In this document: positions 1-56,800 of the stretch, one piece after another
Numbering within the stretch: position 1 is the stretch's first letter
How the letters are laid out: each line of letters begins with the position of its first letter
Assembly (NCBI GenBank): GCA_002633005.1
Contig: NMRA01000581.1
Coordinates: forward strand, 200,787-264,786
Direction: 5' to 3'
Source: Phoronis australis
Taxonomy: Eukaryota > Animalia > Phoronida
Length of the DNA stretch: 64,000 bases
Translations under genes and position numbers: made by a program
Notes under the pieces: model-generated
The model's database searches: none
Seen by the model: only the letters and a program-made list of their open reading frames with translations
Told to the model about the DNA's origin: nothing

Positions 1-1790
1 ATCCATCATTTCCCGTACTACGTAATAGTTTGCAGTGACTAATAAGCCCCTCGCTGGTTCCCAGCGTGTCGCTAGGTGGTATCCAGTACGCAGGTATCAC
101 TTAATTTTCCTCGGGATTTTTTCACCGGCGTTTCTGATTGGCAGGTCGAATTCTCAACAGGCAGTGTTTTACGCAAACAAACTGGCATGGCTGGTGGAGG
201 AAGCGTAAATGTGGTTTGTTCTACAGAAAAATCGGTGCTAAAAATTCATGTTCAAGAAATGTGAATCCCAGAAAATTGTGGTTGCGCCTTTTCGGAGTAT
301 GTCTTTCTACTCTCACTGACTTTTGTTTATGATGCTGTCCTATATTCTCACTTTGTTATAAAGCCAACCAATGACTGTCGAGGTTACATGAACCAATGAT
401 AAAGCGCGTGCTACTGCTACCCGTGTGGTGGTTAGCAGCAAGCAGGAAACCAGCGAGTAACAAGCCCAGGTGCTTCAAGTAACATCGGTCACCGTAATAA
501 GTTTATTTTTTTCTCTGTATGTAGTAACGTACACCGTGACTTTGTATCGACGCTTTTTCATTGTCCATACTATTGATGCTTCTCGCAACTAGATTTATAA
601 GGAGACTAAACTCAGTTTTGGCCTATACAGAATCTTACTGAGCAGTCTGCGGATTTCGTCAATAACATAAAAACTAAATTTAGTAAAAAGGAAAGGTAGA
701 TTGATAGAAAAACAACGGTACCAATAACTCTAATCAAACTTTGTTTCGTATAAGTCTTCAGATGAGATTTCTAAACTATCGTCTCTATTTCGTTTTTATG
801 CAGCTTTAGAATTTTTTCTTGAAAATCATCCGGGTCTCTTTAAAATGGACTCCTGGCAGCGTTTTGGAGGACAGTGTATGAAAAATAGTACCTGAAAATG
901 TCATTTGAAACAGATATCAGCAAAAAACTCCCTATCCAGATAACTTAAATAGGAATTGATAACTCTCTTGAACCTCAAAGCTAAAAGCGTGTTTCCAGTT
1001 GAACTCCCTAGTGGTACATAAATGGTGATATGCAACCGCCAGGTCTCAGAGTGGTTGAAACACCCAAATATGATTCATTGTACTTTTAAGCTTGCGTACA
1101 TCATTAAGTCATGCCATTGTCGTGGAAATCGCCTACACTTCGTGAAGCCGCTCAAAAAATATTTCAGCAAATTTTTACAAGCTAAGAGTAGCTGAAACGA
1201 AGCCCAGTTTGTTTAAAATCGGTAATAAACTTGCCTAATGTCACAACACTAACTTTTCAATTAGAGAAGTTATTGTCAAGAAATTGGTGTGAAATTGCTT
1301 GCTAGTGGAATCTATTATTGCTTGAGACAAGGCGTGCGTTCTGTAACACTAATATCTCACGCAATCTCGCGAGGTCTTGCTTTTTAGAGAGTACCTCACG
1401 TTACTGGACTGTAGGCAGGCTCTACAAGATGATTTTCACGGTGTGTTATTGGATTTCCCGAGCATCGGTTTGCTTCAATGGCCACCTACCAGTCTAACGC
1501 GAAAATTAATTTCTTAGACAAAAATGTGAATCCACGGCCTCTTTAAAAGGTCACTTGGCATTCCCGATATTACAAGANNGCTTTTTTCGATTGAAAATAC
1601 CCTCATATGGTAGCATGTGGGGACAATTCCAAAAGTAAGACAATATTCGCAATTGTGGGCTCATGAAGCAGTTAGGCTGCACTTGACTGACTTCGCCGGT
1701 TCTGTCAGGTCGACATGTATTTGTTCTGTTAGCCAGAAGTTGTCCAAAAGATGTTTAAGGTTATCTCAAACCTTATTTCGTGACCTCCAT
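1..1790. repeat. Diverged paralogous copy of the upstream region of transporter copy A (~30724-32230)
   Basis: Collinear blocks such as AACAACGGTACCAATAACT, AAGTCATGCCATTGTCGT..AAATCGCCTACA and AAGTAAGACAATA occur in both places in the same orientation. Confidence 0.85.
50..457. mobile_element. Unclassified MITE with ~25-bp TIRs and a 10-bp target-site duplication
   Basis: Left end CTCGCTGGTTCCCAGCGTGTCGCTA; reverse complement of right end CTCGCTGGTTTCCTGCTTGCTGCTA. Flanked by TAATAAGCCC (40-49) and TAACAAGCCC (458-467). The paralogous region at ~30773 has a single TAACAAGCCG (empty site). Confidence 0.75.
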
Positions 1791-2872
1791 TCTAACTGGT
1801 ATATCAAAAACTAAGCTTTGTCGACTAGTAAAAGTATAATATTTTCTGAAAGAAAAAAGATCAGGGAATATATTTTTGTATTTATGTACCATCATTATAA
1901 TTACGTAAATTCCATTTTAAATCAAAATTTCAGTTTTAAGAAAGGTACATTCAAATATAATAAATAACCCCTTAGTCAATTTTAATTAAACTGTTTTTAA
2001 TGAAAGCTTGACCAAGTACCTCAAAAACGCTGTTAGGAATTTTCGATTAGTCTATTTGTTTGGTTTCTATGACAAACCAACTCGCTAAACGTAAGGTATT
2101 TTTTGTAGAAAATAGAAGTCGTATTCGTCTTCGTTGTATTCGTCTTCGTTACATTACGCAAAAACTAGGCATTTATATCAAAAATCCTAAGAGCGTTTTT
2201 GAGAATGACGACTATTAAATTTGGAACTTTTCAGCGAAATCCATCAAACCGTTTTCGAGAACGTACGTGTAGGAGTCCTAAGTTCAAATAAAGTCGATTT
2301 GCCGAAGCCGAGAAAAAAGCCAATTAAACTGGGACGAGTGAAAATCTCAAAGTCTTCGGTTAATTACAGTCGGTGAAAACTTGTTTTCGGTAAACATACC
2401 CTATACATGCTATTTCAACATTCACTAACTATGCCAACTGAATTTGCAGTGCGTTATTAACTTAATTATCAATACGTACCGTTCCCAGCCACCATTTGGG
2501 GTAAACGTTACTTGTACTGTACATGTAGGTCACAGTTCTTTGTCATACATATATCCTGTACACGCCACGTGCAAAGAGACTGATACCAAACCAAGTAAGA
2601 AGTGGATAACAAAAATCAAATCGGTGGTTAAAGTATGTCGTTAGCATGAGATCGGAATTTGGGAGAGGATTTATCTCTTTTCACAATTGTCAATGTTCGT
2701 TTAACCACAGATGCGTGAGGCGACTGGTAGCATTCGTTCTCAACGCCAACGGTCGGTTTGCACTGTAGGTGCACAATTCCATCAGGATCAAAAGTACGTT
2801 TTGTGTTTGTTTTCCCCGAAACCATTCTATCATAAGTACACCTCGTTGACTCAATATTATGGCGACTAGGTA

Positions 2873-3234
2873 CCCAGTAAACATGCAGGCACTGGGCCAA
2901 TACTGGCCTTGAACTGTCGTCTGTATTGGCCCAATGATGTAGGCCAGTACTGGCACAGTAACTTTTTTGCGCACCCTCTTGTATTGAGCCGGTATAAGAC
3001 TGCGATATCGGGCCAGTAAAGGGCCAGTACCAGGCCATTACTGGGCCAACACACCAAAAACCGCTTTCGGTCCTATAAAGGGCCAGTACTGACAGACTGT
3101 GTTGGCCCTGTACAGTGATGGGCTCATATTAAGCCTGTATATTAATTATATTGGCGAAAGTGCAGTGGTTGGCAAGTATTGAACCATTAATGTTGCCTTT
3201 ACAGGCCCAATGCAGGAATATTACTGTTTGTGGG
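2873..3234. mobile_element. Non-autonomous DNA transposon (CCCAG-type termini, TA flanks, internal GGGCCAGTACTGGC-like repeats)
   Basis: TA|CCCAGTAAACA ... TGTTTGTGGG|TA, with many direct and inverted copies of GGGCCAGTA/TACTGGCC inside. Resembles animal EnSpm-like MITEs (inference). Confidence 0.6.
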
Positions 3235-4251
3235 TATACAAACTTCGTTAAAGGCACGACTAGACTTTTTGTTAGCAACGGTTGATACTGGTACCTTCGT
3301 AATTTCGGAACAGTCTCCTTTCTTCTGGTGTGCAGGTACATGTATGAAGTAACAGACCGAGAGACATAATAAACAAACAAAAACAGTAGCTTTATTTCGT
3401 GTATTCATGCATCAGGCAATGAGTAAAATGGACATATACACTGTTTATTTCGCTCAACTCATTACTTTTTACAAAACTGTCTCGGGCTCGTTATTGAAGT
3501 GGGCAACAACTCTGGCAGCTTCACACAGTCTTCGTCCTTCCTCCCTGTCGACAGCGTTTCGGAACCTGATGCCTGTCTCTTTTACTGTAAAGCTTGCATT
3601 AACATTACTGTGATCCTTGATCACAATCCCTGAACAACGCCTGCTTAGTATATTGGAGTACAAACTAATAGACTCCACTATTCTTTTTCCAATTAAGTTT
3701 TGCAATATAAGAATTATCTAAAGAAACTGTATACCAATCCAACACGAAACTCATTTGAAATGCATAATCAGTAACATACATGTATATGTTTCATCCTTTG
3801 TCAACACAAGTATTACAGCCGGTTGTCGTATTTCAGTTTCTTGTAATAAATATTTTCAGAAGCGACTTTTTATTCATTCTATTTCTTCTCAAAATGTCTA
3901 TTTCGTTACCATTTTAAGATCCTTAAAAATACTTCACAATCTATAACAAAAAAGTCTCATGAGCATCCATTGACGGTTTTGCTGTGTGTTTACAAACAAT
4001 TGACACTGATGTGACCTTTTCAGCTTCGTCCCCAAGCCTCAAGATGGCACTGATCGGTTAGCCACTTGAAGCTTGGTTATGGGAATTACCATCTGCGAAA
4101 TGATTGACCGATGCCCTGACGTCATTCAAACAAAGGTAGATTGTAATTATTTTCACATTGGAGCCATTCATGCGACACAAGGCATTGTTATAGTTATTGT
4201 CTGACCTAAAGGTTGTAATTATTTTCAAGTCTTATGTATGAGAAGTATTAA

Positions 4252-7200
4252 GAGACAGTCCATATAAAAACCAGTAGATTTTCAAAAATCAGTCTATACG
4301 TCAAAATTTAAAACAACTTCATTTTTTCTACATGGGTAGGTATCCTAACAAAAACCCAAATGCCAAATTTTGTGCACTCAATGACCCCTAAATTCGCCGC
4401 TGGAGCATGATAACATAAATTGGCACAATTGGGCATATTAGCCGTCTCAAAAATCGCATGTTTTCAACAACAAAAATGAGTAACATACAAAATAGATCGA
4501 AAGCTATATTTTAGTGGCTGAAATAACCAACGTATACTGTACATAATTCTGTGCCATTTATTGAAATCTGACAGTTTTGTGCTAGACAGGGGAGATAATC
4601 CACAGACCACTTTTTGGGGCTAATTTTAGTGGCCACTTTTGTGACGTTCTTACTGCCATAAAACACCTTGTAGCCTTATGTGACGTTTTGAACGTACAGT
4701 TAAAGTATTAGTCTTGATGACTGAGCAATAAAAAATCTTGCCTCAACTTTGCACCTTGGTGAAAATTGTCTTGCATAACCGTCTATTTTCATAGTTTGGA
4801 AATGACGAGCAGACTTTACAGACCATTTGAACAAACTTTTAGGCAAGAAGTCTGCTTTAAATAGTTATAGAAACCAAGTCTAAACTCTTTCAAATGAAAA
4901 CAAGATGTTTTCCGGGTCTATTACGCGGCTAGTATCAAACCCGAACCCGATGACCTTTGCCCACTGAGGGAGTCAGTTGAGGTTAAGCTTGAGGATATAT
5001 AAAAAATGTACGTGTAACCCTATTGTATTCTTTCATTTCTTTTACATTATCAGGTTAATTTAAGCACTCTGTAGAAATTTTAAATGGAAATAAATGCCTT
5101 TAAGATTAAACGAGAATGAATTGATAGTTGTAATGATTGGTTTTGAGAGAAGCAAGTGCATTTTAAAAAGACAAAATGGCGGACGATGTCGATGGGCCTT
5201 CATGTTCCTTTAGAGTTTATTCTGCAAAAAATCCGATCACAAAAGCTTTGTGCTTTAGTGAGTTATGTCAAAGACACCACTGAACATTTGAGATACAGGA
5301 AACTACCTCACAAAGCAAGGCCTGTGCCAGAGTACGCACTCGTACTACCCAGAGTCGGTGAATTTCTGAGTGAACAGGACCAGTTATGGAAGAGTCAGGT
5401 AATGCTGGATGTTACCACTCTGCTCCTCTCCTCCTGAACGTAGCAGCCTTGTCAAATTCTACCGGCATTTCTGTTTCGAGATATGACTTTAGTGAAAGTC
5501 AGAATGGAAAGGATCTCTGTGATCGCAAGATCGCTCCACTCAAACAACATGCAAAGTACTTTGTAGCCGAAGGTAAAAATATCATAAAGTTTCTGGATTT
5601 TAAAGAAGCATTACTTTCCAGTGGCCATGTGAAGGGATGTTATGTGTATGCATGTTCAGTCAATGCAACAAAGTCTTTTCCAAAATACCCAGTTCCTGAT
5701 ATAAGCACATTCCCAAATTCCCACTATTCCACCCAAGGAATTCGCGTGTGGAAATCATTGCATGTAGGTGACGGTAAGTTCGTACAAATACTGAGAAAAT
5801 GCGAAACCTATTTCTCTAAAATACACTAACATCTCTAGACATGGCGGAGTTTCAACACCAAGAGTTAAGGTTGGCATTGTATCTAGTGAAGAGCCTCAAC
5901 AAAGTTCCCTTGTACCCAGCAAGGTTACTCGAAATTTTTTGCTACAGACGCAGAACTAGGTCAGCATTTGGATGTGGGTAACTACACTGAACATTTACAG
6001 AGGGAAACCCCGTATGACCACATAGCACGACAGTGGTCAGAAATGCTTTCAGATGCAAGAACCGGAGCGTCATTTGAGGCAGCCTCAGAGTACTATTTGG
6101 ATGAGACGAATGCTGAAGCAATAGGTTAGGCATTGAAACAAAGTAAAGTGTCAACAAGATTTTCATCAAAGGTTAAGAACTTTCTGACGAACATATTCGA
6201 TGAAGGAGATAAGTCAGGTAAAAACGTTCACCCTCGGAAGAGCCAAATTGGAGAAAACATTACGAGAACCCACTGGTAAAGTATTCACCTGTGATATTAA
6301 GTGAATCGCATATTGGTGGATTTTTTCGAGGTTGTCTGCAGCAATGTTTATGACGATGCAATTTCTGCTGAAGATGCTGTTATATCGTTAGATTTACTGA
6401 ATGAAGTGGTAAATGAGCTCAACGTTTAGCCTAGTTTTGTATCATACCAGTCAAAGATGTGTGATATATGAAGTCGAGACCGTTACTTCTGTTTACTTCA
6501 TGTCTGTCATGAATGAGTCATTAATAAAATTGTCTCTCGTGAATTATATTCTATCGACTGTGAATGTCTACCTTTTTATACCACTGATGATCGCACTGAC
6601 AGAAATATTCAGCGTTAGGGTGCCCGGTGTATGGGGGGAACACCAGATTCCTGGCGACTGGTGGCGACTAAAATTTGTAAAAACCAGCAGGGACATTACA
6701 ATATGAACCCAAAGTTACAATGACTATTGACAAGTTGAAGGATTTATTGCACTGAACACTAGGGGGCCATATCCACCTTGGGTGCCTTCCTTTGCCTGTG
6801 GCACCAACAAGGCAGATAGAAAACAAGGCAGGGGTGAGTTCAGTAACACTAGAACCTTTATAACATTTATCCAAAACCACGTGTTCTCATTTAAAATGCA
6901 GGGCAATATCTCGCGAAGTCTTGAATTATAGCAAGGTCCTCGTGTTACTGCTCTTAGCTCTTGTTCTAGATGCGTCTTCAGTCTCTACGTAAACAAAAGC
7001 AGCGCCATCTACTCATTTAGAACCACGCATGCCAGTTGATTTACGTTACATATTTTTTGTAATAAGCAATAATCCTCAATGCCGTTTCCAGAGAATGGTA
7101 ATTAATAATGCTGTCTGCCTTTTCTCCAAAATACAAGGTTTTTATGTCGTATTTCGCAAGCTAATTATATGTTCCAAGAGCCCCCTATTGGCAGCAGAGG

Positions 7201-7750
7201 CAACTGAGAACCTGCAAAAGGACGAAGTGCAGTTCGTGTAAAGCTTCGTACGCATAAACTAGATTAGAGGCAAGATTTTTTATTTTAGATTATGAACAGG
7301 TTAGGAATGACTAAACAAATTATTATAAAGTCAATTTCAGGAAAGGTGCGTTATGGCTTCTACAGAGTGCCAAATTTGGCCGAAAATGGCTTCAGCGAAA
7401 ACCTGAAAAATAGCCGTTTTTGCCTCACAAATTCATAACGTACAAATTTAAAAATGGATTTTGAAAGTTATACCATTAAATTATTCAGCCACTGCGCTTT
7501 CAATTCGTATTATTCATTTGTTTTGACCTTACCACACATGCTAGTAAATTGCATTCAAACATGCCCACTTCGACGCCCAACTTTGTTGCAAAATGGAGGT
7601 ACAGGTCATAAAAAGAAAAATAATGAATGAAAATTCTTAAAAAGTGAGGTTTTTCTACATCTCAACAAACCAAACTCATGTGCTAAGTTTCAAAAAAATC
7701 GATGATTTTGGGTATAGACTCTACCTGTTGGTTTTTATATGGAGTCACTC
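4252..7750 (+). mobile_element. Sola3-type DNA transposon, internally deleted
   Basis: TTAA TSD (4248-4251, 7751-7754) and GAG...CTC termini with TCCATATAAAAACC in both ends. Patchy inverted homology extends ~490 bp (AGTGGCTGAA; AAAAATCTTGCCTC at ~4732 vs ~7268). Internal transposase fragment present. Confidence 0.75.
5386..6340 (+). pseudogene. Sola-type transposase fragment (catalytic core to C-terminus)
   Basis: SGNAGCYH (usually SDNAGCYH) ... RYDFSESQNGKDLCDRKIAPLK. Frameshifted downstream remnants HLDVG and STRFSSKVKNFLTNIFDEGDKSGK. Confidence 0.7.
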
Positions 7751-8229
7751 TTAATCTGTTTTCGAATCAAAAACATCATTTTTGCAATAATTTAGACCTA
7801 CATGTAAAATGCTGTAATATACCGTTAGTTTTCATTTTTATATAAACCTGCAGAAAATTTCCGAAATTACTCGTGATATTCCGGCAATTTCCGTAAAAAT
7901 TCTGGCACATTTCATTTCCCGTAACCAAGCCTGAAGTGACTGATCAGCGCCATCTTGAGGCTTGGAAACGAGGCTGAGTGCCGCTTACATTGTACGATGC
8001 CGCGCGTGCACAAGGTCAGCAAAGTTGTCGAAGAAGTAAACACAGCAACAAAACGGAGATTGTTTACGTTTCACAGGATCACCAATGACCCGCATTGTTT
8101 TGGATTTTGATATTTGCGACACTAACAAGAGATAGCACGGAGGTTGTTTGAAATCCCGAAAATAAGGAAAAAACATCTTTTTGAGCTCGTGTATACCACT
8201 AAGCTATACCAAGAACTACATATCCCTTG

Positions 8230-11730: not shown

Positions 11731-12685
11731 GTCCATGAATGTGTACATGCGAACAATGACGTACCTACATTCCTAAAACTCGGCTACAGTAACGTCTTCA
11801 ATTCATGGAAACATTTTTGTACCGGTCTTCTTGACCACCAGCGGCACTGCATCGTTTGTATTTAGCAGTGACTTTACACTTCCGACGCAGCGCGCTTCAA
11901 AGGGAACGCAACAGCGTTGCTACGCTCTCGCGACGAACGTGTCCCACTATGTGGTCTGACCTTTCAGTAGACACATCGACTGTGACAGTCGATGTGTACT
12001 AATGAATAAAAATAACTCGGTGTTAAACGCACGTGGCCAGGAAGCGCGCGCTACACACATGAACCTGTCATCACAGACATTAGTCGGGAACTATCCATTC
12101 ATGAAACGGATAGCATTGCATCGATAACAAATGAATATTGGCACTAATTTCCGACAATTTCTAATACTATAAAACATGTTTGCGTTATTTTTGAGATGGA
12201 TTGTTTGATTAACCATAATTGGTGCTTTTAAGCCGAATATCCGATAAAATGACAACTGACAGTGAATGCTTACACACTATTACACCATAGATTATAGACA
12301 ACAGATTCGCAACTCCGGCATATTCTTACGAGCTGAGCTGAACTCTCCTGACCTATCTGCTGCAGTTTCCGGTCAGTGTAATTTGACGAGAAATACTTGC
12401 ATCTACTTTACAGTCCAAAACAGCGAAAAAACATTAATTCATATTAATTTCGGTATTGAAACGCTTTTCAGTCTTTCAATAGTAGAAGTGTTGGTATTGT
12501 GAGTACTTTTGGCTATGCTACTGGTAATTAATTTCAAAATTCAAACTTCGGTTCCGACCCTTTATGTCGTCTGCTTGCCCAATAGCAGCATAGTTATCGG
12601 ACAGTTTTTGATTTACGGTTCACATAGGCCTACTGTTTATAAATCAACATTCTCAAGTGAGCAGTTCTTCTGGGAAGTGTTGAGT

Positions 12686-12701
12686 GGCCCTTAAAAGGGC
12701 C
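12686..12701 (-). promoter_or_regulatory. Histone-mRNA-type 3' stem-loop (distal copy), followed by an HDE-like tract
   Basis: Minus strand: caaccaac GGCCCT TTTA AGGGCC actca. A 6-bp stem/4-nt loop fitting GGYYYU-UYUN-ARRRCC with A/C-rich flanks. CAGAAGAACTG (12672-12662) starts 13 nt after the stem. Confidence 0.85.
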
Positions 12702-12726
12702 GTTGGTTGTAGGTATAGCGTGAAAT

Positions 12727-12742
12727 GGTTCTTAAAAGAACC
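12727..12742 (-). promoter_or_regulatory. Histone-mRNA-type 3' stem-loop (proximal copy)
   Basis: Minus strand: ttcaac GGTTCT TTTA AGAACC atttc, 10 nt after the TGA of the PHD ORF. Confidence 0.8.
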
Positions 12743-12752
12743 GTTGAATAAT

Positions 12753-13070
12753 TCAACATAAATCACACAGTATACCATGCTCACTCAAGTACTGAAGGTC
12801 CTCTTCATTAAAGTTTTCATCTGGAAAGGTTGGATGAAAACAGAGGAGATGACAATATCGATGACAGTTGTAACACCTTAGATAGATATCACCGTTCACC
12901 AACGTTGTCACGAACCCTGCATCGTTCAGTTCTTGTTCCTGTATCCACAAATAATCCTGAACTGTAGGAAAAAAATGACAAACAACACAACGAATCAAAT
13001 TTCGAAAATCATCGCCTTCGTACGATTCCGTGTTGCTGTCACCAGACTGATGTTCTTCTCCAACGTCCAT
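12753..13070 (-). CDS. Small intronless PHD-finger (C4HC3) protein, 105 aa, with acidic N-terminus
   Basis: From ATG 13070: MDVGEEHQSGDSNTESYEGDDF, then C-x2-C-x34-C-x2-C-x4-H-x2-C-x24-C-x2-C with the stop right after the last Cys. Followed by two histone-type stem-loops. Confidence 0.7.
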   Translation of the reverse strand: MDVGEEHQSGDSNTESYEGDDFRNLIRCVVCHFFPTVQDYLWIQEQELNDAGFVTTLVNGDIYLRCYNCHRYCHLLCFHPTFPDENFNEEDLQYLSEHGILCDLC

Positions 13071-13356
13071 CGTAAAAAATCGACGTTGCAAGTGATGGAA
13101 ACTTGTCTACGCTCTCGTCCTTTGTTTCTAACCTTTAACCCATTTTTTAATAAAGGGGTGTACTGTTTTTGGCTCATGTTGATAGTGCATAATCTATGGT
13201 TTTACAATGTATTAATAGTGTTAAATGCATATATATGAACTGGTCTCATTGAGGTGCACAGCAAATAAATTAACTATAACAAATTAAAGTTTTGAAAATA
13301 TAAAGAGCAGTAACAGACTCCCTAAAAATTAGGCTTGTTTTCGAAAGGTTTGCGCC

Positions 13357-13396
13357 ATTGGTGATCCGATTGGTTCAATCGCTTGCGGCGGGAAAA
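13357..13396 (-). promoter_or_regulatory. Putative promoter: E2F site plus two CCAAT boxes
   Basis: Minus strand TTTTCCCGCC (13396-13387), CCAAT (13373-13369) and CCAAT (13361-13357), about 290-330 bp upstream of the PHD ORF ATG. Confidence 0.5.
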
Positions 13397-13561
13397 TTGA
13401 TAGACCCAGTTATTGTGCGCGTGTACACTGTATCAATGCTTTGTATCTTATTCTTATTTGTCTAATCTGTTGATACAGTAAATTTCCTTATTTATGCCCA
13501 TCCTGATTTAACCCCGACTTGAGCTCCTTGGGTTTTACCATATTGGGGCTGTCCAGGGACT

Positions 13562-13716
13562 CACGTGCATGCGCGCACCCAGTCTTCAAAATGGGGGGCT
13601 CGAATTCCTGACGTTATGGAACTGTTGTTAACAAGAGAGCGGGCAGACCTTTTTGCCCACTTCGCCAAATGGGGGGGGGCTCGAACCCCCCCCCTCTGAG
13701 TTGCGCGCATGACGTG
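13562..13716. mobile_element. Short MITE-like hairpin element, copy 1
   Basis: CACGTGCATGCGCGCACCCAG ... CTGAGTTGCGCGCATGACGTG inverted ends; internal GGGGGCTCGAA shared with copy 2. Confidence 0.55.
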
Positions 13717-14895: not shown

Positions 14896-15117
14896 TTAAG
14901 TAGTAGGCCTACCAGAGCCTCTTAAAAAACACCCATCTTCGAAGTGACGTGAACAAATGTACAAGTTTTTTTTGGAAGAACAACTTCCATTCACGTCGAC
15001 GCGAGAACATAACTTTTTCTCCCACAGCGGATTTTGGGGTCTCCGTACACTATGGAAGCTAACGCCTCTGCAATTCGCCTGCGTAGCCGAACAACCGGCC
15101 ACACAGCAGCCGACCAT
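14896..15117 (-). pseudogene. THAP zinc-finger ORF, probably the 5' remnant of a DNA transposon
   Basis: MVGCCVAGC...VSFH...W...ICSRHFEDGCF is the THAP C2CH signature. It stops before the AVPT box, and no transposase follows. Confidence 0.7.
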
Positions 15118-18012: not shown

Positions 18013-20278
18013 GTTTTTTAAGTGATATATATTTATTGAAGAATACACAGAACATACAAAGAAATAATAATAAACCCAGAAACCTCGAAGCATTATATCT
18101 GGGTTGTAAACAATTCATCAATGATACTTATATACATAGAGGTATATACAATTAAGTACTATCTATAATAAGTATTCCAATAATTAGATATGCAATTACA
18201 GATATATAAAAGCAAAAATATGTACAGATTCATGTAGGGAAATCAGATGCAACAATATTGATAAACGGTACATAAAAATTTATTAACGTTGCTTAGGAGG
18301 AATTCGTTGAGAACGAAGTTGAAGTTTAGAACTATCATTCAATAATAATGTAACTCTAGTAGGGATATTATTACAAGAATTTAGAGCGTTAACAATTGAT
18401 TGGTTTGCATTGAGTGCACGAAAGAGTGAGTCTCTCAGGTATTCGATGAGGGGACATTTGAAGAAAATATGAGGATAAGATTGATGGTCACCACATTTAC
18501 AGTTTGGAGAGACATTACTTAAGTTGTGCCTGAACTTGTCAGAGGTGAGGAAAACGCCACATGTTGATCTGTACAATGCTATTTCGTTATCGCGGGTAAG
18601 GGAGAATTGAGTCAAGGGTGTTGAGTTATCAANATGAGGATAAGATTGATGGTCACCACATTTACAGTTTGGAGAGACATTACTTAAGTTGTGCCTGAAC
18701 TTGTCAGAGGTGAGGAAAAGGCCACATGTTGATCTGTACAATGCTATTTCGTTATCGCGGGTAAGGGAGAATTGAGTCAAGGGTGTTGAGTTATCAAAAT
18801 TATGAAAAACAGTTCTAAAGTTATTTTTATACTCGTAAAAGACTTGCTTTCCTTAACAGAGATTGGAAGAGAATTCCAGTTGTTGATGCACATGACTGTA
18901 GACCTTCTGAATGCCTGACTGAACGACGGGGGAATTGCATAAGGGGTGGAGGATCTCAAATCACTATGATGGCCTTGTCTAGTATATAGATCAAATATTT
19001 TTTTTAACAGACACATTGTTAACATTGTTTATTACCTTGAAAGTAAATGTGGTCATGTGAATATTGCGTCGAGTAGACAGTTTGGGCCACTTGAGACTAT
19101 TCAAAACCTTAACACTATTGGATCCCCTGTCAGCTCCGGTTATGAGTAAGGCGGCTTAATATTGTAACTTCTCCAAATGTTGGAGTGCACCCGTATTGGC
19201 AGACTGATATATAATATCACAATAATCAATGTGTGGAAGTATAAAGGATTTGAACAAAACTTCTAAATGTGTAGAATTCAGATGATGAGAGACAAGCTTA
19301 AGTGGGTTAATTAGTTCCTGAGTTTTTTGTACGAGCTCCCGAACGTGAGGGGTGAATGAGAGTTTTTCATCTAACAGTATACCCAGATGTCTGTGCGACT
19401 GTTTTCTAGGAATGATTTCATCATTAAGTTTAAGGTCATAAGACGGGTCAACAAGAAAGAGAGCATTAATAGATTTGGAGAAGGTGAGGTCAACGCTTTT
19501 TTCTGGTTTAAAATTCATTCTTCATTCTTGTGACCAGTAGCTGAGTTTATTTAAGTCGTGTTGAAGCTGCAAAGAACATTCAGGGCTGCTCCCTGCGAAG
19601 GGGTAAAAAGCGCCGTGTCATCTGCATAAAGGTATGTGCTACATGACAGGTTATCAGGAAAATCATTAATATAAACCAAGAAGAGAAGAGGGCCTAATTC
19701 GCTACCCTGCGGTACACCTGCGTTTACAAATCGAGGAGGGGATAAAGTTGAAAGTACGCCGTCGACACGAACACTGTATGTTCTTTCGGAGAGATATGAG
19801 GTGATCACGTTTAAAAGATTACTAGTAATGCCATAGGATCGAAGTTTGTGAAGTAGAAGGTCGTGAGGGACACAGTCGAAAGCAGAAGCTATATCTAGAA
19901 AAATGGACCTGACACTCTCGCCCTTCTCAAAATATAAATGAATCTCATGTACTATTGCAACAAGTTGTGCCACGGTGCTGTTCCCACGCAAAAAAAAAAC
20001 AAATTGACGATGATAGATCAAGTTGTTTTGTTTGAGAAATGTAAGAATACTTTGAGCAATGATCTTCTCGAAGATTTTGGACAGGGTGTTAAGTAAAGTT
20101 ATTGGGCGATAATTTGAAATTTCAGTTTTGGAGCCTTTTTTGTGTATAGGGACCATAATTCCATGTTTCCAAGAAGACGGATATATACCTATCTGAAGAA
20201 GTTTGTTAAACAGATTGGTCAGGGGCATGGTAATTTCGTTGGCAATCATTTTGATCATCTTACTGGTTATTAAAGCTG
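18013..20278 (-). mobile_element. 5'-truncated non-LTR retrotransposon (CR1/L2/Crack-like) with broken RT ORF
   Basis: YRPITLLNTLSKIFEK, FLDIASAFD, GVPQGSELGPLLFLVYIND, YADD, HRHLGILLD, PHIDYCDII and C-terminal CKCG..H..C across ORFs 19551-20258, 19156-19518, 18777-19025 and 18283-18780. AATAAA at the 3' end; candidate TSD TCTGTACAGGA (18002-18012, 20279-20289). Confidence 0.92.
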
Positions 20279-21628
20279 TCTGTACAGGAATTGACGATGA
20301 ATGGTGTGAAAACAGTAGTTGACAAGCAGTAGAGAGTGACCTGTAAGCACTTAGACAAGCGCTATAAATTCTTTGGTTTCTTGTGATTTACAGTACGTAT
20401 GTCCAGACAGACGCTGAGTGTCCCAATGACCACGGTAGTTGAATTGAACTACACGCTAATGTGTGTAACTTGGAGGTAAAATTTTCTTTTTGATAAATGT
20501 TTCATTAAATTCTCTACTGTCATTGTTGATTTTTGAGAAACTTTAACTGCAGTACCTATAGACGCACAGACTTAATGGATCACAAATAGATAACATTGAC
20601 GAATAAGGTGGCCTGGAAAGTTGACGTTATCTAACCTCAGATTTTTGTAGGGTGTGACAGGGAGTTTTTTCAAATGTAGTTTTAATTTGCGATAGTATGT
20701 GCGTGCGTCAGAAATGCGGTTTGAGTTTAAAGTCAAACATTCAAACAACGACTTGTTAAGGTTCTTTGGTTGACTTAATGTTTAAATGTAACTTTATTCG
20801 TAGTTTGTCGACACAACTTGTTACACAAATAAACCAGGAAATATTATTAACATAACGCAAATCAATGACAACACAAACAACAGTTTGATAATTTCAGGAA
20901 AAAAATTAAACTGTAATTTAATAAATTTAATATATTTGGTGATAGAATGCCGAACTTACTCGAATTTGTCAACGTCGATTAGTTTTTCAAAACACCGTTT
21001 CAATGTGCCTGAAGTTTCTGGGCTCGAGCTTGGAGAAAAAAACTCCGGAAATTCAAGTTTAAATGAATTGTTGTGATGTGCATTGAAACTAATCGTGATC
21101 GCCCAATCGGTTACAATCTCCAAAAGTGGCGTGCCCAGTGCATTTTCAGGCAATAATCGCTGAAAGTTTCATCAATTTCCCCTCAAAACTAAAAAACTTT
21201 AGCAATCAAATGTGAATGACATCATAGGCTCAAATCACTTCCAAACAATTCAAGCGCAACCAAGAATGGCGAAAACAAGATATCATCACCTTTAACCCAA
21301 AGATTTGAAACGAACACCTGGACACGTGACCACCAAAGTTAACACAAATTATTCTTACACCAGCCTGTTTTAAGTAAATTTTTGAATATTTTTCTGCACA
21401 TTAGCAACCTATGGGAGATCAGTTGAAAAATGAATGGGTTTTATCCTGCCAAATAAGCATGTCATATTAAAGTTTAGTCGAGTCTCGACTCAAAAAGTGA
21501 CCAATCACGCAGCATGAAAACTGGTAGTCACCAGGGCTGTGTTGTCAAAATACATCAAATAGAGAAGTGATTTATTTACAGTGATGAAATAAACACTAAT
21601 TTTCCTTATATAAGCTTGCATAAATACA

Positions 21629-22723: not shown

Positions 22724-23744
22724 TTAAGTAGAACATTCCGCTTCTTCAGAAGTTACAGTTACGCTTTCACAATTTCGATTTCCGGTTCTTTTATGTCTGC
22801 TGCCTCGCCAAAATCCGGCAGAGTACATAAGCAAAGCAACGAAAGTTGCAGACGCCATAGAAACAAATAGAAAATATATAGTATGCTGGGCACTATGATT
22901 TTGAAGCAAATATCCAACAATTAACTGAGTGGTTAACCCACCCATGGCTACAAAGACGTCAGCGAGGGACGTCAGAACGCTGGTGACTTCAATGTAATGG
23001 TTTTCAAAGGCTAGTCCTCCCGGAAATATGGGTCCGTACAGAAAAGCAGTAGAAATCATGAAGCCCCATAAGTGATATGTACTGTTTACCCCCACGTAAC
23101 AAAAACAGGCAGAGAGAAAATTGTTGTACCAAGAAGAAACGGTAGCAACAAAAACTGTACAGGAATACGAATAGTTGCAATGAACATAACAAGCCGACCG
23201 ATGGAAAGTGCGAGGATTTGCATGGCGTCCAGCCAGGCGGCGTCTTGCTTTGTTAGTTTCAAGTTGCTCTCGACTGCATACGTCAACATGTAGGTCAGAA
23301 GGGTTTCATCCGCACATTTGCAACTAAATAAATAAAGAATTAAACAACAGCACATGAAGCTGCCATAGACACAGTTTCCTTCTGCGCACGAGCCCGGATG
23401 TAAAAGATTTTTTAACGAAGTTGAATCACCGCGTGATTCAAGAGACTTCCGCGTCTTCTTTACCGGTTTCTTGATTTGCAGCAACGCGCAACCTATAGAG
23501 GGAAATAAAAATGCTCCTGCAATAATGGAATACGGTATTTCGATACGGGAAGCTTTCCCGTATTCAGTGCTGTTGTTTGTGAAAACTATTCCGGTGCCGT
23601 TGTAGCTGCTGTTACTGATTGTGCCGAGAAACGGTGACGCAATGAACGGAACGAGAACCATGGGAAAGGCTGATATAGCGTACACAGCGTTCACAACTGT
23701 GCTGGCTCTACTAGTCCAGTTATTCAGCAATATGTAGTTTCCCA
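22724..23744 (-). pseudogene. Copy A exon 4 (frameshifted)
   Basis: tttcag|TG GGA AAC acceptor. SRIEIPYSII, PGSCAEGNCVYG and LTYAVES match B and C; the frame changes near 23115. Confidence 0.85.
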
Positions 23745-28127: not shown

Positions 28128-29253
28128 TCAGACATGCAAAAAAGCATATTCCAGAGCCGTAATATACATAATTTCCGGAGAACTTTTTGACATTTTCAAT
28201 TTTGGTGGATTCGGGACATCAAATATTGTTGGCACAGCATTCCACACCAGCTTGTGCTTCATAGAATTCATGAACATGGACTCCTCGAAGTGATGAGAGC
28301 ATAATTTGCAGTTCTTGGACAAGTAGGCTGCATCTCTATTCATAAAGTCGGCTCCCAGCGCTTGCACCTTAACAGAAATCAATGAGAGACTCAGGAACAA
28401 ACCGCATACTGACCAGGTTCATAGAAGACTGGTAGCCTACACTACACTGCACTGCACTGCACTGCACTGCACTGCACTGCACTGCACTGCACTGCACTGC
28501 ACTGCACTGCACTGCACTGCACTGCACTGCACTGCACTGCACTGCACTGCACTGCACTGCACTGCACTGCACTGCACTGCACTGCACTGCACTGCACTAC
28601 AAAAGTCCTGTCGCACCGTGCTTGTGAAAGAGACAAAACTGTCTTGGTGTTAACTAAAAAAACTAGGACTCAAATATCGATCGACGGATATTTTAAGGGC
28701 CGCGTCTCCGCATCATTGGCGCATAGAAATAAGTTTTTATTGACACACTGCTTAACTTGAACCAACTGAAACATTAAAATTATGTCGATTTTTTCATCTT
28801 TTCAACGAGACCCACAAATTCTCTAACTTGACTCATGACAGACTTGAGGCCGCCCTGTGACTGTGATTGCGGCCATGTCACCAGTCATTCACTCATAGCC
28901 ATCGGTATGTTAACCTAAAATTATGCGTGCTATCGTTCGGTAACATTTTGATTTAAAATACATGGACTGCAAAGTATCCAAAAAGCTGAAGATCACATCG
29001 TTAATCGTAGTCCTTCCGCCGGCAGCTCTGTTGTGCAGTAGGCCTAGCCTGCAATGTAGACAACAGTGGCACAGGGACTGCGATCGATTTGTCTTCCAAC
29101 CGTGAAAAAAACATACAAAACGAAAGACACTATGAATAACAGATAATCCTTACCTTTTTGGATCCTTAGGAAACCTAAAAAAATGACACGTCTGGGGTTT
29201 TCGTGGATGAATTAGTGCAGTTTATCGCACTGTAAAATGTGCCCTTCCCCCAT
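28128..29253 (-). pseudogene. Spliced THAP-domain remnant (exon 29253-29154 and exon from ~28367)
   Basis: MGKGTFYSAINCTNSSTKTPDVSFF(+1 T)RFPKDPK|gtaagg ... ttaag|RCKRW then, after a frameshift, CKLCSHHFEESMFMNSMKHKLVWNAVPTIFDVPNPP. Confidence 0.8.
28445..28594. repeat. (CACTG)30 pentanucleotide microsatellite
   Basis: Perfect tandem CACTG units. Confidence 0.98.
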
Positions 29254-30596
29254 TGCTTTGGCGCTTCCTGGTTGACCGTTGCTTATTCACCACTAGGCGG
29301 CGCTACTACTAGCGGTAACCGAGAACTCACAAGTGAACTCCCCTATACAACTACACTCCTTGCTCCAATACCCTGGGTCTGGAGTACGTGCACTTCAACC
29401 CAATCAGTTAATATTTTTTTAGATTTTTGCAGTTTACGTGTTTGTGAAAATTGAAGCGACTCACTGTGAAAGAATAGACGGCAAAGATGAGAATAGTCCT
29501 AATGTAACGATAACTTTTCTCAATCATACGTTTCCTGGGCCCAACTTCATCCTCTTTTTCAACGGACAGTTTGACGTTTCCGTTAATGTCTTTTGAATTT
29601 TGACAGTCGGCCATATCGCTACTTCCAATGAAAATCGCCTCTCTTTGCATTTTCANNNNNNNNNNAGAAATAAGTTTTTATTGACACACTGCTTAACTTG
29701 AACCAACTGAAACATTGAAATTATGTCGATTTTTTCATCTTTTCAACGAGACCCACAAATTCTCTAACTTGACTCATGACAGACTTGAGGCCGCCCTGTG
29801 ACTGTGATTGCGGCCATGTCACCAGTCATTCACTCATAGCCATGGGTATGTTAACCTAAAATTATGCGTGCGATCGTTCGGTAACATTTTGATTTAAAAT
29901 ACATGGACTGCAAAGTATCCAAAAAGCTGACGATCACATCGTTAATCGTAGTCCTTCCGCCGGCAGCTCTGTTGTGCAGTAGGCCTAGCCTGCAATGTAG
30001 ACAACAGTGGCACAGGGACTGCGATCGATTTGTCTTCCAACCGTGAAAAAAACATACAAAACGAAAGACACTATGAATAACAGATAATCCTTACCTTTTT
30101 GGATCCTTAGGAAACCTAAAAAAATGACACGTCTGGGGTTTTCGTGGATGAATTAGTGCAGTTTATCGCACTGTAAAATGTGCCCTTCCCCCATTGCTTT
30201 GGCGCTTCCTGGTTGACCGTTGCTTATTCACCACTAGGCGGCGCTACTACTAGCGGTAACCGAGAACTCACAAGTGAACTCCCCTATACAACTACACTCC
30301 TTGCTCCAATACCCTGGGTCTGGAGTACGTGCACTTCAACCCAATCAGTTAATATTTTTTTAGATTTTTGCAGTTTACGTGTTTGTGAAAATTGAAGCGA
30401 CTCACTGTGAAAGAATAGACGGCAAAGATGAGAATAGTCCTAATGTAACGATAACTTTTCTCAATCATACGTTTCCTGGGCCCAACTTCATCCTCTTTTT
30501 CAACGGACAGTTTGACGTTTCCGTTAATGTCTTTTGAATTTTGACAGTCGGCCATATCGCTACTTCCAATGAAAATCGCCTCTCTTTGCATTTTCA
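28725..30596. other. 931-bp near-identical direct duplication across a 10-N gap (probable assembly/haplotype overlap)
   Basis: 28725-29655 equals 29666-30596 except ~4 substitutions; the junction is the N run at 29656-29665. Confidence 0.85.
30406..30555 (-). pseudogene. Copy A exon 1 (150 nt; duplicated at 29465-29614)
   Basis: MADCQNSKDINGNVK...YRYIRTILIFAVYSFT|gtgagt, paralogous to exon 1 of B and C. Confidence 0.8.
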
Positions 30597-34966: not shown

Positions 34967-35973
34967 TCACAACATCGTCAATTTCCCTGCACGTGCTCGT
35001 CTTTTCGCGCGTTCTTTCCTGTCTCCTCTCCAGCAACCAACAGAGTACATAAGCAGTGTGAAGAATGTTGCCAAGGCAATGCTAATAAAAGCAGAATACA
35101 AAATATACTCCGGACTGTGATACTGAAGCAGGCCACCAGAAATCAACTGAGCCGAGAAACCACCTAGGGATGAGCTCACATCGAAGACTGCGCAGAGAAT
35201 TCCGGAAATAACCATGTACTTGGTCCAGAAGGACAGACCGGATGGTATGCTTGGTCCGTAGAAGAAGGCTGAAGAAATTGCAAACACCCAGAGATATATT
35301 CTGCTGTTTGTACCGAAGTAGCATAAGCATCCCCAGCAAACGGTCGTGCTCATCAAAAAAGGTAGAAATGTGTACTTTGTGGATACACGGAAACTTAAAA
35401 GTGACACAACTGCGCGACTTGCACACTGTGCCAGTGCTTGCATTGAATCCAGCAAGGCTGCATCCTTCTTCGCTAACCCGCTCTTCACGGCATATGTCAT
35501 TAAATACACGTTAAGAACTTCGTCCGTATTTCTCAAGCAATATGCAAAAAGTATAATGGCGAAACACATGAAAGATCCGAACAAACAATTCCCTTCAGCA
35601 CATGACGCTGGGTTAAGGAGAGCTCTCACGGGGGTGCTTTGCTTTGACTCTGTTTTTCTCGCTGTTGTGTCCGTTTTCATCAAATATAAGAAGACAAATG
35701 CAGTGCTAGTAGACGCAAAAATCCCGCCTACTATGCCATACGGTATTTCAATTCGCGACTGTTCCCAGTTGGCATCTTCAGCAGTTGCATTTCGATCAGA
35801 CGACTGTGTGACGTCATATCCGGTTGAATTACTCTCACCTTCGTTGACAGATCCTAAGAAGGGCAACAAAAGCAACGAAGCAGAGAACATGCCGATTGTT
35901 GAGACACAGTATGCAGCGTTGAGCACAACCGATGCTTTCGTCGTCCACAAACGCAGACACACGTACATACCAG
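34967..35973 (-). CDS. Copy B exon 4
   Basis: ttttag|CT GGT ATG; open 333-aa multi-TM frame. Confidence 0.92.
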
Positions 35974-49801: not shown

Positions 49802-50844
49802 CTAAGACTCGTCAGAAATCACAACTTCATTCACAATATCATGCCATTCCCCTGCACGTGCTCGTCTTTTGGCACGTTCTTTCCTGTCTCCTCTCCAACA
49901 ACCGGCTGAGTACATAAGCAGTGTGAAAAATGTTGCCAAGGCAATGCTAACAAAAGCGAAATAGAGAATATACTGCGGACCGTGATATTGAAGCAGAATA
50001 CCAGAAATCAACTGACCAGAGAGCCCTCCCAATGCTGAACTGATATCGAAGAGTGCGCAGAGGATTCCGGAAACGACCATGTAGTTGTTCAAAAAAGACA
50101 GACCGGCTGGTGTGGTTGGTCCGTAGAAGAAAGCTGAAGAAACGGCGAACACCCAAAGATATATTCTCTTGCTTGTACCGAAATAGCATAAGCACCCCCA
50201 GCAAACCGTTGAGCTGAGCAAAAAAGGGAAAAATGTGTACTGTGTGGAAACACGAAAACTTAAAATGGACACAAGTGCGCGACTTGCACACTGCGCCAGA
50301 GCTTGCATTGAATCCAGCAAGGCTGCATCCTGCTTTGAAGCCGCTAACCCGCTCTCCACGGCGTATGTCATTAAATACCCGTTAAGAATTTCGTCTGAAT
50401 TTCTTGCACAATACGAGAAGAGTATAATGCCGAAACACATGAAAGTTCCGAACACACAATTCCCTTCAGCACATGATGCGGGGTTTAGGAGAGATTTTAG
50501 GGGGGTGTTTTCCTTTGTAGCTGTTTCTTTCACTATTTTGTCCGTTTTCTTGAAATACAATAATACAAGTATAATACCGGTAGACGCAAAAATCCCACCT
50601 ATTATGCCATATGGTATTTCAATTCGCGACGGCTTCCAGTTGGCATCTTCAGTCGTTGAATTTCGCCCAGCCAACTTTGTGACGTCATAACCGGTTGCAT
50701 TATTCTCACCTTGGTTGAGAGATCCTAAGAAGGGTAACATAAGTAACGAAGCAGCAAACATGCCGATTGTTGAGAAACAGTATGCAGCGTTGAGTACAAC
50801 CGGTGCTTTCGTCGTCCACAAACGCAGAAATGCGTAATTGCAAG
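49802..50844 (-). CDS. Copy C exon 4
   Basis: ttttag|CT TGC AAT; open multi-TM frame ending VVISDES*. Confidence 0.92.
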
Positions 50845-53800: not shown

Positions 53801-56800
53801 TCATTACACAAGGGAAGATTTTGAAGACGAAAGTGAGCCCTCATTCCGTATTGATAGTTCTCCAGTTCCCCCTTCTAATGGTGTCAATCAAAGCAGAAGG
53901 GGTAGACATTCATTTCGAATTGGAATCGGGCGAAAGCTCATCATTTATTAGCTTTGCAAAATACCAAAAACATTTCAAGTACATTGTTTTGAAACCGAAA
54001 CAAACAAGTGTACACGGATATGCAGCTGCAAAGTTGAGTGTGGCTGGTGAAATTTACGTTGATGTGGAGCATAACGGTCAAACATTGTCATTACCCTTAA
54101 CGGTTGTGCACGCTAAACAACATGCNCCCCCCACCTATTGTTAGGACGATCACGGTTGAAACACTTGAAACTAGAGTGGCCTAGTCTGGTTACTACACAC
54201 GCAATTATGGAAGATTCCTTGGACGAATTCAAAGTCAAATACCCTGACGTCTTTAAAAAAGAACTAGATACGGTGAAAAGTGTACGAGCTTCATTGCGGT
54301 TACATGAAGACACACGTACCACCCCTGTATTTTTGAGAGCACGTACGGTTCCTTTCGCTCTACGCAACGCGGTGGAAAACAAGTTAGTTCGCATGGAAAA
54401 CGAAGGTATTATCCGTAGGACAAACTATAGTGAATGGGCAACACCTCTCGTTTGTGTTCCCAAGCTGGACGGTACACTACGTTTGTGCGGAGATTATAAG
54501 GTTACCGTGAACAAAGCGATTAAGGTTGACCAGTTCCCGATACCGACTCCTGAAGAAGTTTTCACCAAATTGGCTGGAGGACAACAGTACTCGAAAATCG
54601 ACTTGGTGTGCGCGTATCAGCAACTGTTGCTTGACGATCAAGCAAAAAGCTTAGTGACAATGAACACTCACAAGGGTCTGTTTGCGTACAATAAACTCCC
54701 TTTTGGTATCGCGTCGCACCCTGCCATTTGGCAGCGTTTCATGGACCAGGTTCTAGCCGGTTTCACTCGAACTTGCGGTATCATGGACGATATATTAGTA
54801 ATTGGTAAAGATGACAAAGAACATTTGCATTTGCATAACTTGCACAACTTATTCGCTCGGTTCAGGCGTCAAAGCCGACATGTGTAGCCTCATGCAACCA
54901 AGTGAGGTATACATGTGCAGAAGAATTACCAGAAAGGGGCTCCAAACCACACACGACAAGGTGGAAGTGATTTATAAAGCTCCATCCCCGCGAAACGTAA
55001 CCGAACTTCGGTCATGGCTTGAAATAGTTAATTTCCAATCGCAATTTATTCCGAACTTATCATCAATGATTCATCCCCTCAACACGCTTTTTGGGGAAGG
55101 TTCCATTTAAATGGACAAACTCGTGCGAAGAGGCATTTGATAAGTTCAAGGTCACATTAACGTCAAAAACCATCTTAGTACACTGCAGTCCATCATTGCC
55201 TCTAGAGTTGGTCGTGGATGCATCTCCGTACGGACTCGGTGTGGCTCTCGTACACGTCTAAGACAATGATGTGAGTAAACCTGTTGCTTACGCCTCACGC
55301 ACGTTGGGTAAGCACGAATAAGGTTATGCTCAGTTGGATAAGGAAGATTTGTCCATCATGTTTGAGTTGAAGCGCTTCCATACGTACCTCTACGGACGAA
55401 AGTTCACCATCTGTATTGATCGGAATCCCCTGGAACGAATCCTTAGTCCGAAAACGTCAATACCGACGCTCGCAGCGCACCGTTTGCAACGATGGGCAGT
55501 AACATTGTTCGAATTCAGCTACAGTGTATGTCATACGTTACATTCCGGCGAAGCAGAATGCTATCGCGGACGCTTTGTCTTGTTAGCCTCTACCGTCGGT
55601 GAGGGGAGATGAAGAAGAGATCAACTCCGTTGAATCAAAGATTATTGAAAGCCTTTCAGTTACATGTAAGGAGATCAGTAAGGCTACGCGTACTAATCCA
55701 CTGCTATCTCGAGTTCTAAAATTTATGAAATTTGGGTGGCGTAGCGGTTTGGCAGACAAGGATCTTGAGCCGTTCCTGTCACGTCGTCAAGAGCTTACGG
55801 TAGAGAATGACTGCATCTTATGGGAAATGCGCGTCATCATTCCACCTAAGTACCAACAAGCCGTACTCGAGGAACTGCACGATTCTCATGTGGGTATTGT
55901 CCGCATGAAGGAGATAGCGAGGAGTTTTGTGTGGTGGATAAACATAGATAAGAATATCATTAATCTTGTGAAACTTGTCATTTGCGGCAGCAGGTTAGGA
56001 ATTTGCCTGCTGTTGCCCCTCTGATGCCTTGGGTGTGGCACAGAGTGCATGCAGATTTCCCTGAAAAAGATGGAAATCATTTCCTAGTGATCACTGATGC
56101 TCACTCAATGTGGCCGGAAATTATAAATATGAAAAGCACTACCGCAGGTTCCACTATTTGTGAATTGCATGAGTTGTTTAGCAAGTACGGGCTTCCAGTC
56201 CAATTAGTCAGCGATAACAGGCCACAGTTTATAAGTAATGAGTTTCAACACTTTTTGAAAGTCAACGCAGTGAAACAAGTGTTAGTGGCACCATGCCATG
56301 CGGCTAGCAATGGTGCAGCAGAAAGAATGGTGCAATCTTTCAAAAATTCACTGAAGGCGAGTAAGTTTAGTGGAAGGTCGGTTGATCAACGTATCGCGAG
56401 TTTCCTCTTGTCATACCGATCTACAAAACATGCCACCACGGGTCTTTCACCAGCACAGTTGTTCCTCGGACGCGAACTCAGAACACGTTTATCTGCAATT
56501 CGACCAGATATCGAAACCAAAGTTTCGCATAGCCAGCTGTCGCAAAAGTTGAATCACGACTCCAAGATGGGACTTCGTGAATTCATGATAGGTGAGGAAG
56601 TGTTTGTGAAAGATTTCTATGTGAAGGAGAAATGATGGCCTGGTACTGTTATCGCGGAAAGATCAGGTCCTAAGTCGTACGTGGTGTTATTAAGTGACGC
56701 AAGAGAGTGGAAAAGGCACATAGATCAGATGAGGTTGTCTCGTCATGGCGTGAAACCAAAGATTGTGGCTAAGCCGGCATCAGAGTCGGATACAAAATCT

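Follow-up and report, generated by a model that had tools for sequence, protein, structure and literature searches.

Within the 64,000-nucleotide stretch of Phoronis australis DNA analyzed here (contig NMRA01000581.1; hereafter the window, whose numbering is used throughout), an intronless ORF of 105 codons, the main ORF, is closely followed by two stem-loops of the type that ends histone mRNAs. We consider it moderately probable that this locus belongs to a multi-copy family of intronless genes for an acidic, likely PHD-type protein, a family likely derived from a transposon or a Polinton, and that it carries the signals of the S-phase histone mRNA route. The feature is real, and it is part of a recurring set that challenges the textbook exclusivity of histone mRNA ends. 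This exclusivity is clearly expressed in the literature: the relevant passages of PMC4604434 know of no non-polyadenylated mRNAs in the cell other than the replication-dependent histone mRNAs and report that no expressed non-histone target of SLBP was found in HeLa cells, and those of PMC5054213, which also describe the pairing of the histone downstream element (HDE) with U7, treat the stem-loop/SLBP/U7 route as likewise exclusive to histone mRNAs. The terms "non-histone" and "transpos" are absent from the available text of a preprint from 2026 that deals with how this machinery evolved (10.64898/2026.10.14.759114), and a literature search, beyond whose reach lay supplements and most subscription journals, found no publication in which histone stem-loops are ascribed to a non-histone gene or to a gene of a transposon or virus. 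To the preliminary description of the locus we add here an upstream promoter cluster, a THAP-domain remnant, a population of divergent copies with a third-position bias, and tandem stem-loop arrays in other public DNA.

The histone-type character of the 3' end is supported by several analyses. Canonical stem-loops had been claimed 10 nt and 51 nt after the stop codon, and both a pattern scan and folding bear this out. The proximal stem-loop (12727-12742, minus strand) is recognized by pattern and does not attain the Rfam gathering score; the distal one (12686-12701, minus strand) scores 36 bits with Infernal against the Histone3 model (RF00032; gathering score 34 bits, E = 8.3e-7) and is the sole Rfam match in the window. 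The two stem-loops, each with the 16-nt consensus and A/C-rich flanks, are the only pattern matches in the 64 kb, as against a chance mean of 0.07, and not one of 100 shuffled sequences contained two; the minimum-energy fold contains them both (z = -3.4). Beyond the distal stem-loop lies a purine-rich tract (12673-12664, minus strand; 7/9 purines), a candidate HDE and thus a putative site of U7 pairing, which agrees at 6/9 letters with the sea-urchin HDE consensus. No such purine-rich element was found behind the proximal stem-loop. Cleavage is predicted from these signals to occur about 5 nt past the distal stem-loop, at about 12681. The absence of AATAAA between the stop codon and the stem-loops, noted earlier, is confirmed and extends, for both AATAAA and ATTAAA, along the minus strand from the stop of the main ORF to 11900 (850 nt). 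The window is, as had also been claimed, devoid of any detectable histone gene: none was recognizable by eye among its 47 ATG-initiated ORFs of at least 80 aa, and the histone families of Pfam had no match in 77 frames, 70 of which lie at 9.5-17 kb while the other 7 are larger ORFs.

The main ORF itself (13070-12753, minus strand) is organized as originally reported, with no introns, an acidic leader (8 of the first 21 residues are Asp or Glu) and a terminal cysteine, Cys105, immediately followed by the stop codon. Its product is acidic overall (20 D/E vs 4 K/R), and the start codon has an A at -3 and a G at +4. Eight putative zinc ligands are all present in the C4HC3 order of PF00628, with the spacing C28-x2-C31-x34-C66-x2-C69-x4-H74-x2-C77-x24-C102-x2-C105. 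A relaxed C4HC3 pattern matched only the main ORF in the six frames of the whole 64-kb window and nothing in 60 random 64-kb Markov sequences. The ligand order of the claimed PHD finger therefore stands, but to call it complete and canonical is an overstatement, because loop 1 is an atypical 34 residues long and the Pfam score with PF00628 (10.1 bits, E = 0.88) is far below the curated cut-off of 24 bits. When the PDB was searched by sequence, the best match was 1wev (E = 0.26), labelled RIKEN cDNA 1110020M19, which we take to be INTS12, and PHD chains of KMT2D appeared at E = 5.6-6.6. The ten best family-bearing matches in the Atlas all belong to the PHD family or clan, with cluster scores of 0.85-0.88 among the matches listed, a result that we rate as a lead only. 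Two AlphaFold models of the protein are of low confidence (pLDDT 53-54), and fold searches with both of them gave nothing usable (best Z 3.6), an outcome that does not count against a PHD fold. The best hit of a PDB profile search, picornavirus VP3 (E = 0.049), was rejected as chance-level. The Pfam, PDB and Atlas signals, each of them weak, all point in the PHD direction, and on this sequence evidence the product is likely to be PHD-like.

The region 5' of the gene presents a second group of signals. E2F, CCAAT and CHR consensus motifs are tied to cell-cycle promoters, and about 270-325 nt 5' of the ATG there is a cluster composed of an E2F-type site, TTTSSCGC (13388-13395, minus strand; one of 6 matches on both strands of the 64 kb), two CCAAT boxes (13373-13369 and 13361-13357, minus strand) and the CHR-like hexamer TTCGAA (13340-13345), the last common in the window and weak on its own. 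Judged by these consensuses, this would be a promoter cluster of the S-phase type. It is followed by a TATA-like run (13229-13235, minus strand), and RNA depth climbs downstream of about 13200. Four ATGs intervene between the promoter cluster and the main ORF, three of them at 13190, 13230 and 13249 and the fourth beginning an out-of-frame upstream ORF of 60 codons (12995-13177, minus strand) that overlaps the start of the main ORF; they may hinder translation of this copy.

The surroundings of the gene are a mosaic. The window has about 40% G+C and is animal-like, TE-dense DNA with MFS-transporter ORFs. At 1.8 kb upstream of the main gene, on the same strand, is a 73-aa remnant of a THAP-domain ORF (14896-15117; PF05485, 33.6 bits, E = 6.7e-8), which has no relative in the viral contigs searched and is separated from the main gene by MITE-like inserts. 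One high-copy insertion of this kind (13549-13712), marked by a peak of depth, is missing from other alleles or copies, in which 13548 is joined to 13713 (runs X5 and X10). On the other side of the gene there is a junction to different DNA in other copies or alleles at 12634/12635, where runs X1 and X6 both show loose ends, and RNA depth reveals a separate and more abundant repeat at about 12000-12635. No convincing pair of terminal repeats bounds this copy, and Pfam detected no transposase, pPolB, integrase, capsid or ATPase in 70 frames at 9.5-17 kb, although Pfam likewise missed the likely polymerase of locus L011 described below. Elsewhere, the window holds a decayed LTR-type pol with reverse transcriptase and integrase (53878-56980), a decayed LINE-like reverse transcriptase (18286-20387) and a 4-kb stretch between inverted repeats of 39-66 nt (4020-7977), which is a decayed DNA transposon and has fragmented transposase-like ORFs (5147-5829) with no Pfam match. 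Three related MFS-transporter-like ORFs, apparently intron-poor and one of them matching PF07690, are arranged in tandem on the minus strand (22724-23661, 34967-35968 and 49802-50761). A 931-nt tandem duplication of 99.6% identity beside a CTGCA microsatellite (28725-30596) and a duplication of 165 nt whose seam contains an N (18466-18808) are possibly assembly artefacts.

The main gene is present in many copies. The DNA run X1 supplied 99 contigs on 12340-13540, of which 13 have a likeness of 99% or more, 15 of 95-99%, 27 of 90-95% and 44 of less than 90%; the divergent pieces span the main ORF, the hairpins and the upstream sequence to 13346, and hence most of the promoter cluster. Near-identical pieces also occur in a marine metagenome and in runs labelled as two other organisms; runs X7 and X8 furnish only a small share, in short pieces. 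The 16 best-supported variants in the main ORF, drawn from the best 40 of 277 rows, fall at third codon positions in 13 cases (P = 1e-4); considered one at a time, 9 of them leave the amino acid unchanged (P = 0.004-0.03, where 23-30% would be expected), a signal of coding constraint in this multi-copy family. Decay is visible too: some contigs have indels at 12799, 12880 and 12976, one listed variant would be a stop codon if taken singly, and contigs of X6 and X7 lose the match at 12974-12989, at the first Cys pair. Word-based protein searches retrieved two relatives, P0002 (96%), in which a Pro replaces His74 and the tail is unrelated, and P0003 (68%), which has neither the first Cys pair nor Cys66. 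Both look like broken copies, and the lack of putative ligands in each of them counts against our preferred reading. The same searches found no relative among longer proteins, and tblastn found none in viral contigs, metagenome contigs or prokaryote genomes; no PHROG family was matched. From the past constraint and the many broken copies we infer a likeness to transposed cargo.

Similar 3' ends occur on other genes. A scan of JGI metagenomes for tandem stem-loops gave 14 loci with 15 arrays, 6 of the 14 loci being at the Rfam gathering score, and the corresponding scan of prokaryote genomes (596 Gb) gave none. The tandem pattern is biased against ordinary single-hairpin histone genes, and the histone share of all hairpins is not derivable from it. 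Three arrays with less than 100 nt of upstream sequence were uninformative; among the 12 with at least 800 nt, 8 are preceded by an ORF or last exon of at least 75 aa that ends within 100 nt of the hairpins, and the other four (L007, L012, L014 and L016) have none of that length within that distance. None of 87 upstream frames matched a Pfam histone family. At L004, an intact-looking ORF (1475-3232, minus strand) encodes a 585-aa piggyBac-like transposase (DDE_Tnp_1_7, PF13843, E = 3e-94) and is followed by 7 hairpins at 24-nt spacing (1238-1398); an E2F-like motif lies 62 nt 5' of its ATG. The ORF of L011 (1-947), whose stop is 6 nt ahead of a hairpin pair, contains what we take to be B-family polymerase motifs and scores 0.97 in the Atlas against a DNA-polymerase cluster and 0.95 against another in which 16% carry PF03175 (DNA_pol_B_2). 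Because of these motifs and scores it is likely a Polinton-type pPolB gene, despite having no Pfam match; no relatives were found in viral contigs or phages. Histone genes are without introns, and since L011 has an apparent GT-AG intron at about 568-653, only 300 nt ahead of its tandem hairpins, splicing and hairpin processing possibly coexist there. L013 is a compact multi-ORF contig of virus-like layout with two convergent hairpin pairs (82-168 and 1077-1163) and ORFs that match nothing in Pfam, and at L005, L006, L008, L009 and L017 non-histone ORFs of 75-348 aa, with no informative Pfam family, end 13-83 nt before tandem hairpins. A purine-rich 9-mer (at least 7 purines) follows 11/15 last hairpins and 4/27 inner ones, a comparison that is biased because the inner windows overlap the next hairpin. 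E2F-like motifs were present in 4 of the 9 upstream regions examined. With such hairpins behind one gene for a transposase and another that likely encodes a DNA polymerase of the virus type, mobile DNA by analogy likely borrows the histone-message pathway so that it is expressed while DNA replicates. The broader proposition, that the DNA transposons and Polinton-like viruses of marine invertebrates systematically use tandem hairpins and E2F promoters and that the main gene encodes a histone-tail reader or decoy, is in our estimate somewhat less probable than not.

A separate observation concerns an RNA virus. The contig L002 (IMGVR_UViG_2716885016_000001, 16,248 nt) encodes a pestivirus-like polyprotein (Peptidase_S31, E = 1e-94), within whose coding sequence the exact sense-strand histone stem-loop pattern occurs twice (1660-1679 and 2636-2655). 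Neither match is at the Rfam gathering score; a simple estimate of the chance of two matches is about 3e-13 per record, and SLBP-binding sites in viral RNA are a possible explanation. Of eight distinct viral contigs with single-hairpin matches, seven had one match, located within ORFs and on the strand opposite to the longest of these; the matches of these seven were treated as chance.

The copies, the surroundings and the arrays elsewhere together bear on whether the main gene is mobile. Its promoter cluster, coding constraint and expression would fit equally well a host, non-mobile and lineage-specific family that was expanded by duplication and uses a histone 3' end for cell-cycle control, and the failure to find element ends or a transposase linked to the gene is in keeping with such an origin. 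The many broken relatives and their variable flanks, the restriction of relatives to near-identical sources, the density of TEs around the gene and the recurrence of its tandem-hairpin layout at a transposase gene and at one that likely encodes pPolB nonetheless argue against a host family, which we regard as unlikely. The earlier idea that the gene is cargo of a mobile element is strengthened by analogy with L004 and L011 and by the repeated nature of the family, but it has gained neither element ends nor Polinton core genes.

The RNA evidence is less favorable. Raw reads of three RNA runs under the same species label (X9, X10 and X11) were mapped at 85% likeness with all copies pooled, and they cover the main ORF at depths of 79-92, 44-62 and 7-14, respectively; at 13207-13340 the depth is 10-22 in X9 and X10, a difference that may partly reflect less efficient mapping of divergent copies upstream. 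First mates are mostly in the + orientation in X9 and X10, as expected of sense RNA if the libraries are of the dUTP type (the type is not on record), and antisense-oriented reads are plentiful. A depth of about 50 continues through both hairpins and beyond in X9 and X10; counted for the + orientation alone, it drops across them from 49 to 19 in X9 and does not drop in X10. No sharp RNA end or pile-up of ends near the hairpins was listed, although a cleaved RNA pool is compatible with this read-through because the selection of the libraries is unspecified and the copies were pooled at 85% likeness. The reads do not support cleavage, and this is the main result against our preferred reading. 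The S-phase-restricted mRNA that had been postulated has a promoter cluster of the appropriate type in its favor, and against it RNA that passes both hairpins with no sharp end.

These same reads could also come from genuine, selected hairpins that are not cleavage sites at present: they may serve as SLBP sites or decoys within a longer RNA that is polyadenylated, or this copy may be a dead relic whose only transcription is as a portion of other RNAs. Such a state agrees with RNA that runs through the hairpins without a sharp end, with the presence of both read orientations and with the upstream ATGs before the main ORF, and PMC4604434, in the part concerned, describes the binding of SLBP to a polyadenylated long isoform of H2AFX. 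On the other hand, the 850 nt past the stop contain no poly(A) hexamer, a purine-rich tract stands behind the distal hairpin, where most other arrays have one too, and this copy retains an open ORF with its eight putative ligands all in place; we judge uncleaved hairpins to be slightly less likely again than a host family. That the hairpins came by chance, from a histone pseudogene or another repeat, to lie behind an unrelated ORF is suggested by the patchwork of repeats in the region, but it is improbable: no histone remnant was detected among the 47 ORFs viewed and the 77 frames compared with Pfam, the first hairpin is just 10 nt from the stop, the layout recurs on unrelated genes, and ORF and hairpins are joined in single contigs of several runs (X5, 12644-12939; X6, 12634-12760; X1, 12648-12837), the last of them divergent with 26 other letters. 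It is more improbable still that the main ORF represents the last exon, or a broken-off end, of a bigger gene, for instance one for a PHD-bearing transposon protein or a RAG2-like protein; the variable N-terminal region with indels near the start and the THAP ORF upstream on the same strand would permit it, but there is an in-frame stop just upstream of 13106, the gene has its own promoter-like cluster, no GT-AG joint crosses the main ORF in the RNA reads, no longer relative was found, and the ligand spacing is unlike that of the invertebrate RAG2L PHDs described in the pertinent section of PMC7204232. The stand-alone intronless gene originally proposed is accordingly supported by the lack of a GT-AG joint and, more weakly, by that of a longer relative. 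One RNA joint (12371-12989, 9 reads) was set aside, its GT..AC ends being those of no canonical intron.

If the main gene is indeed mobile-element cargo that follows the histone mRNA route, its expression can be envisaged as follows. Transcription would rise at G1/S through the E2F site and the two CCAAT boxes, motifs that are observed and from which the timing is deduced. SLBP would bind both stem-loops, the proximal one acting as an extra SLBP site, and the U7 snRNP would direct a cut about 5 nt past the distal hairpin, the only one with a purine-rich tract, to give a non-polyadenylated mRNA. This mRNA would be translated during S phase and destroyed once replication stops. The acidic protein, presumably with two zinc ions, might then act for the element as a reader or decoy that binds the basic tails of histones, which is the weakest step. 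Numerous relatives, several of them broken, would be expected of transposed copies that decay after insertion.

The consequences of such a scheme would not be trivial. Should the full set of signals work on the non-histone family, the transposase and the polymerase genes, these would constitute a second class of clients of SLBP and U7, and mobile DNA would have a simple way of timing its expression to replication. Genes of this kind would be systematically missed by poly(A)-selected transcriptomes. A systematic hijack of SLBP and U7 would, if true, put an end to the rule by which both are reserved for histone mRNAs, and the product of the main gene would arrive just as chromatin is rebuilt.

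The main gene resembles several known systems and differs from each of them. With the replication-dependent histone genes of metazoans it shares the absence of introns, a hairpin of consensus sequence soon after the stop codon, a purine-rich tract, the lack of a poly(A) hexamer and CCAAT boxes in the promoter; but it encodes no histone, carries two hairpins, belongs to a dispersed family with broken copies, and its processing is only predicted. Polinton/Maverick elements and piggyBac-like transposons resemble it in having genes or likely genes with tandem hairpins (L011 and L004) and in forming multi-copy, decaying families, whereas around the main gene neither a core gene nor a terminal repeat was found. 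The PHD finger of PF00628 has the same C4HC3 order and the same spacing from Cys66 to Cys77, but the main ORF has loops of 34 (loop 1) and 24 residues (loop 2) and constitutes a stand-alone protein. PHD fingers usually have a Trp before the last Cys pair, and in the main ORF an Ile stands at this position. In the invertebrate RAG2L proteins, the PHD has the spacing Cx4-7Cx14-16Cx2-4Cx4Hx2Cx11-18Cx2C and is accompanied by a kelch domain, and the passages of PMC7204232 devoted to these proteins make no mention of histone-type ends. The main ORF, with Cx2Cx34Cx2Cx4Hx2Cx24Cx2C, no kelch domain and no detected RAG1L partner, is ruled out as a RAG2L by its Cys spacing and missing kelch. These proteins nonetheless provide, in the same passages of PMC7204232, a precedent for a PHD carried by a transposon, and the sea-urchin RAG2-like PHD, which binds methylated H3K4, a precedent for a histone reader encoded by a mobile element.
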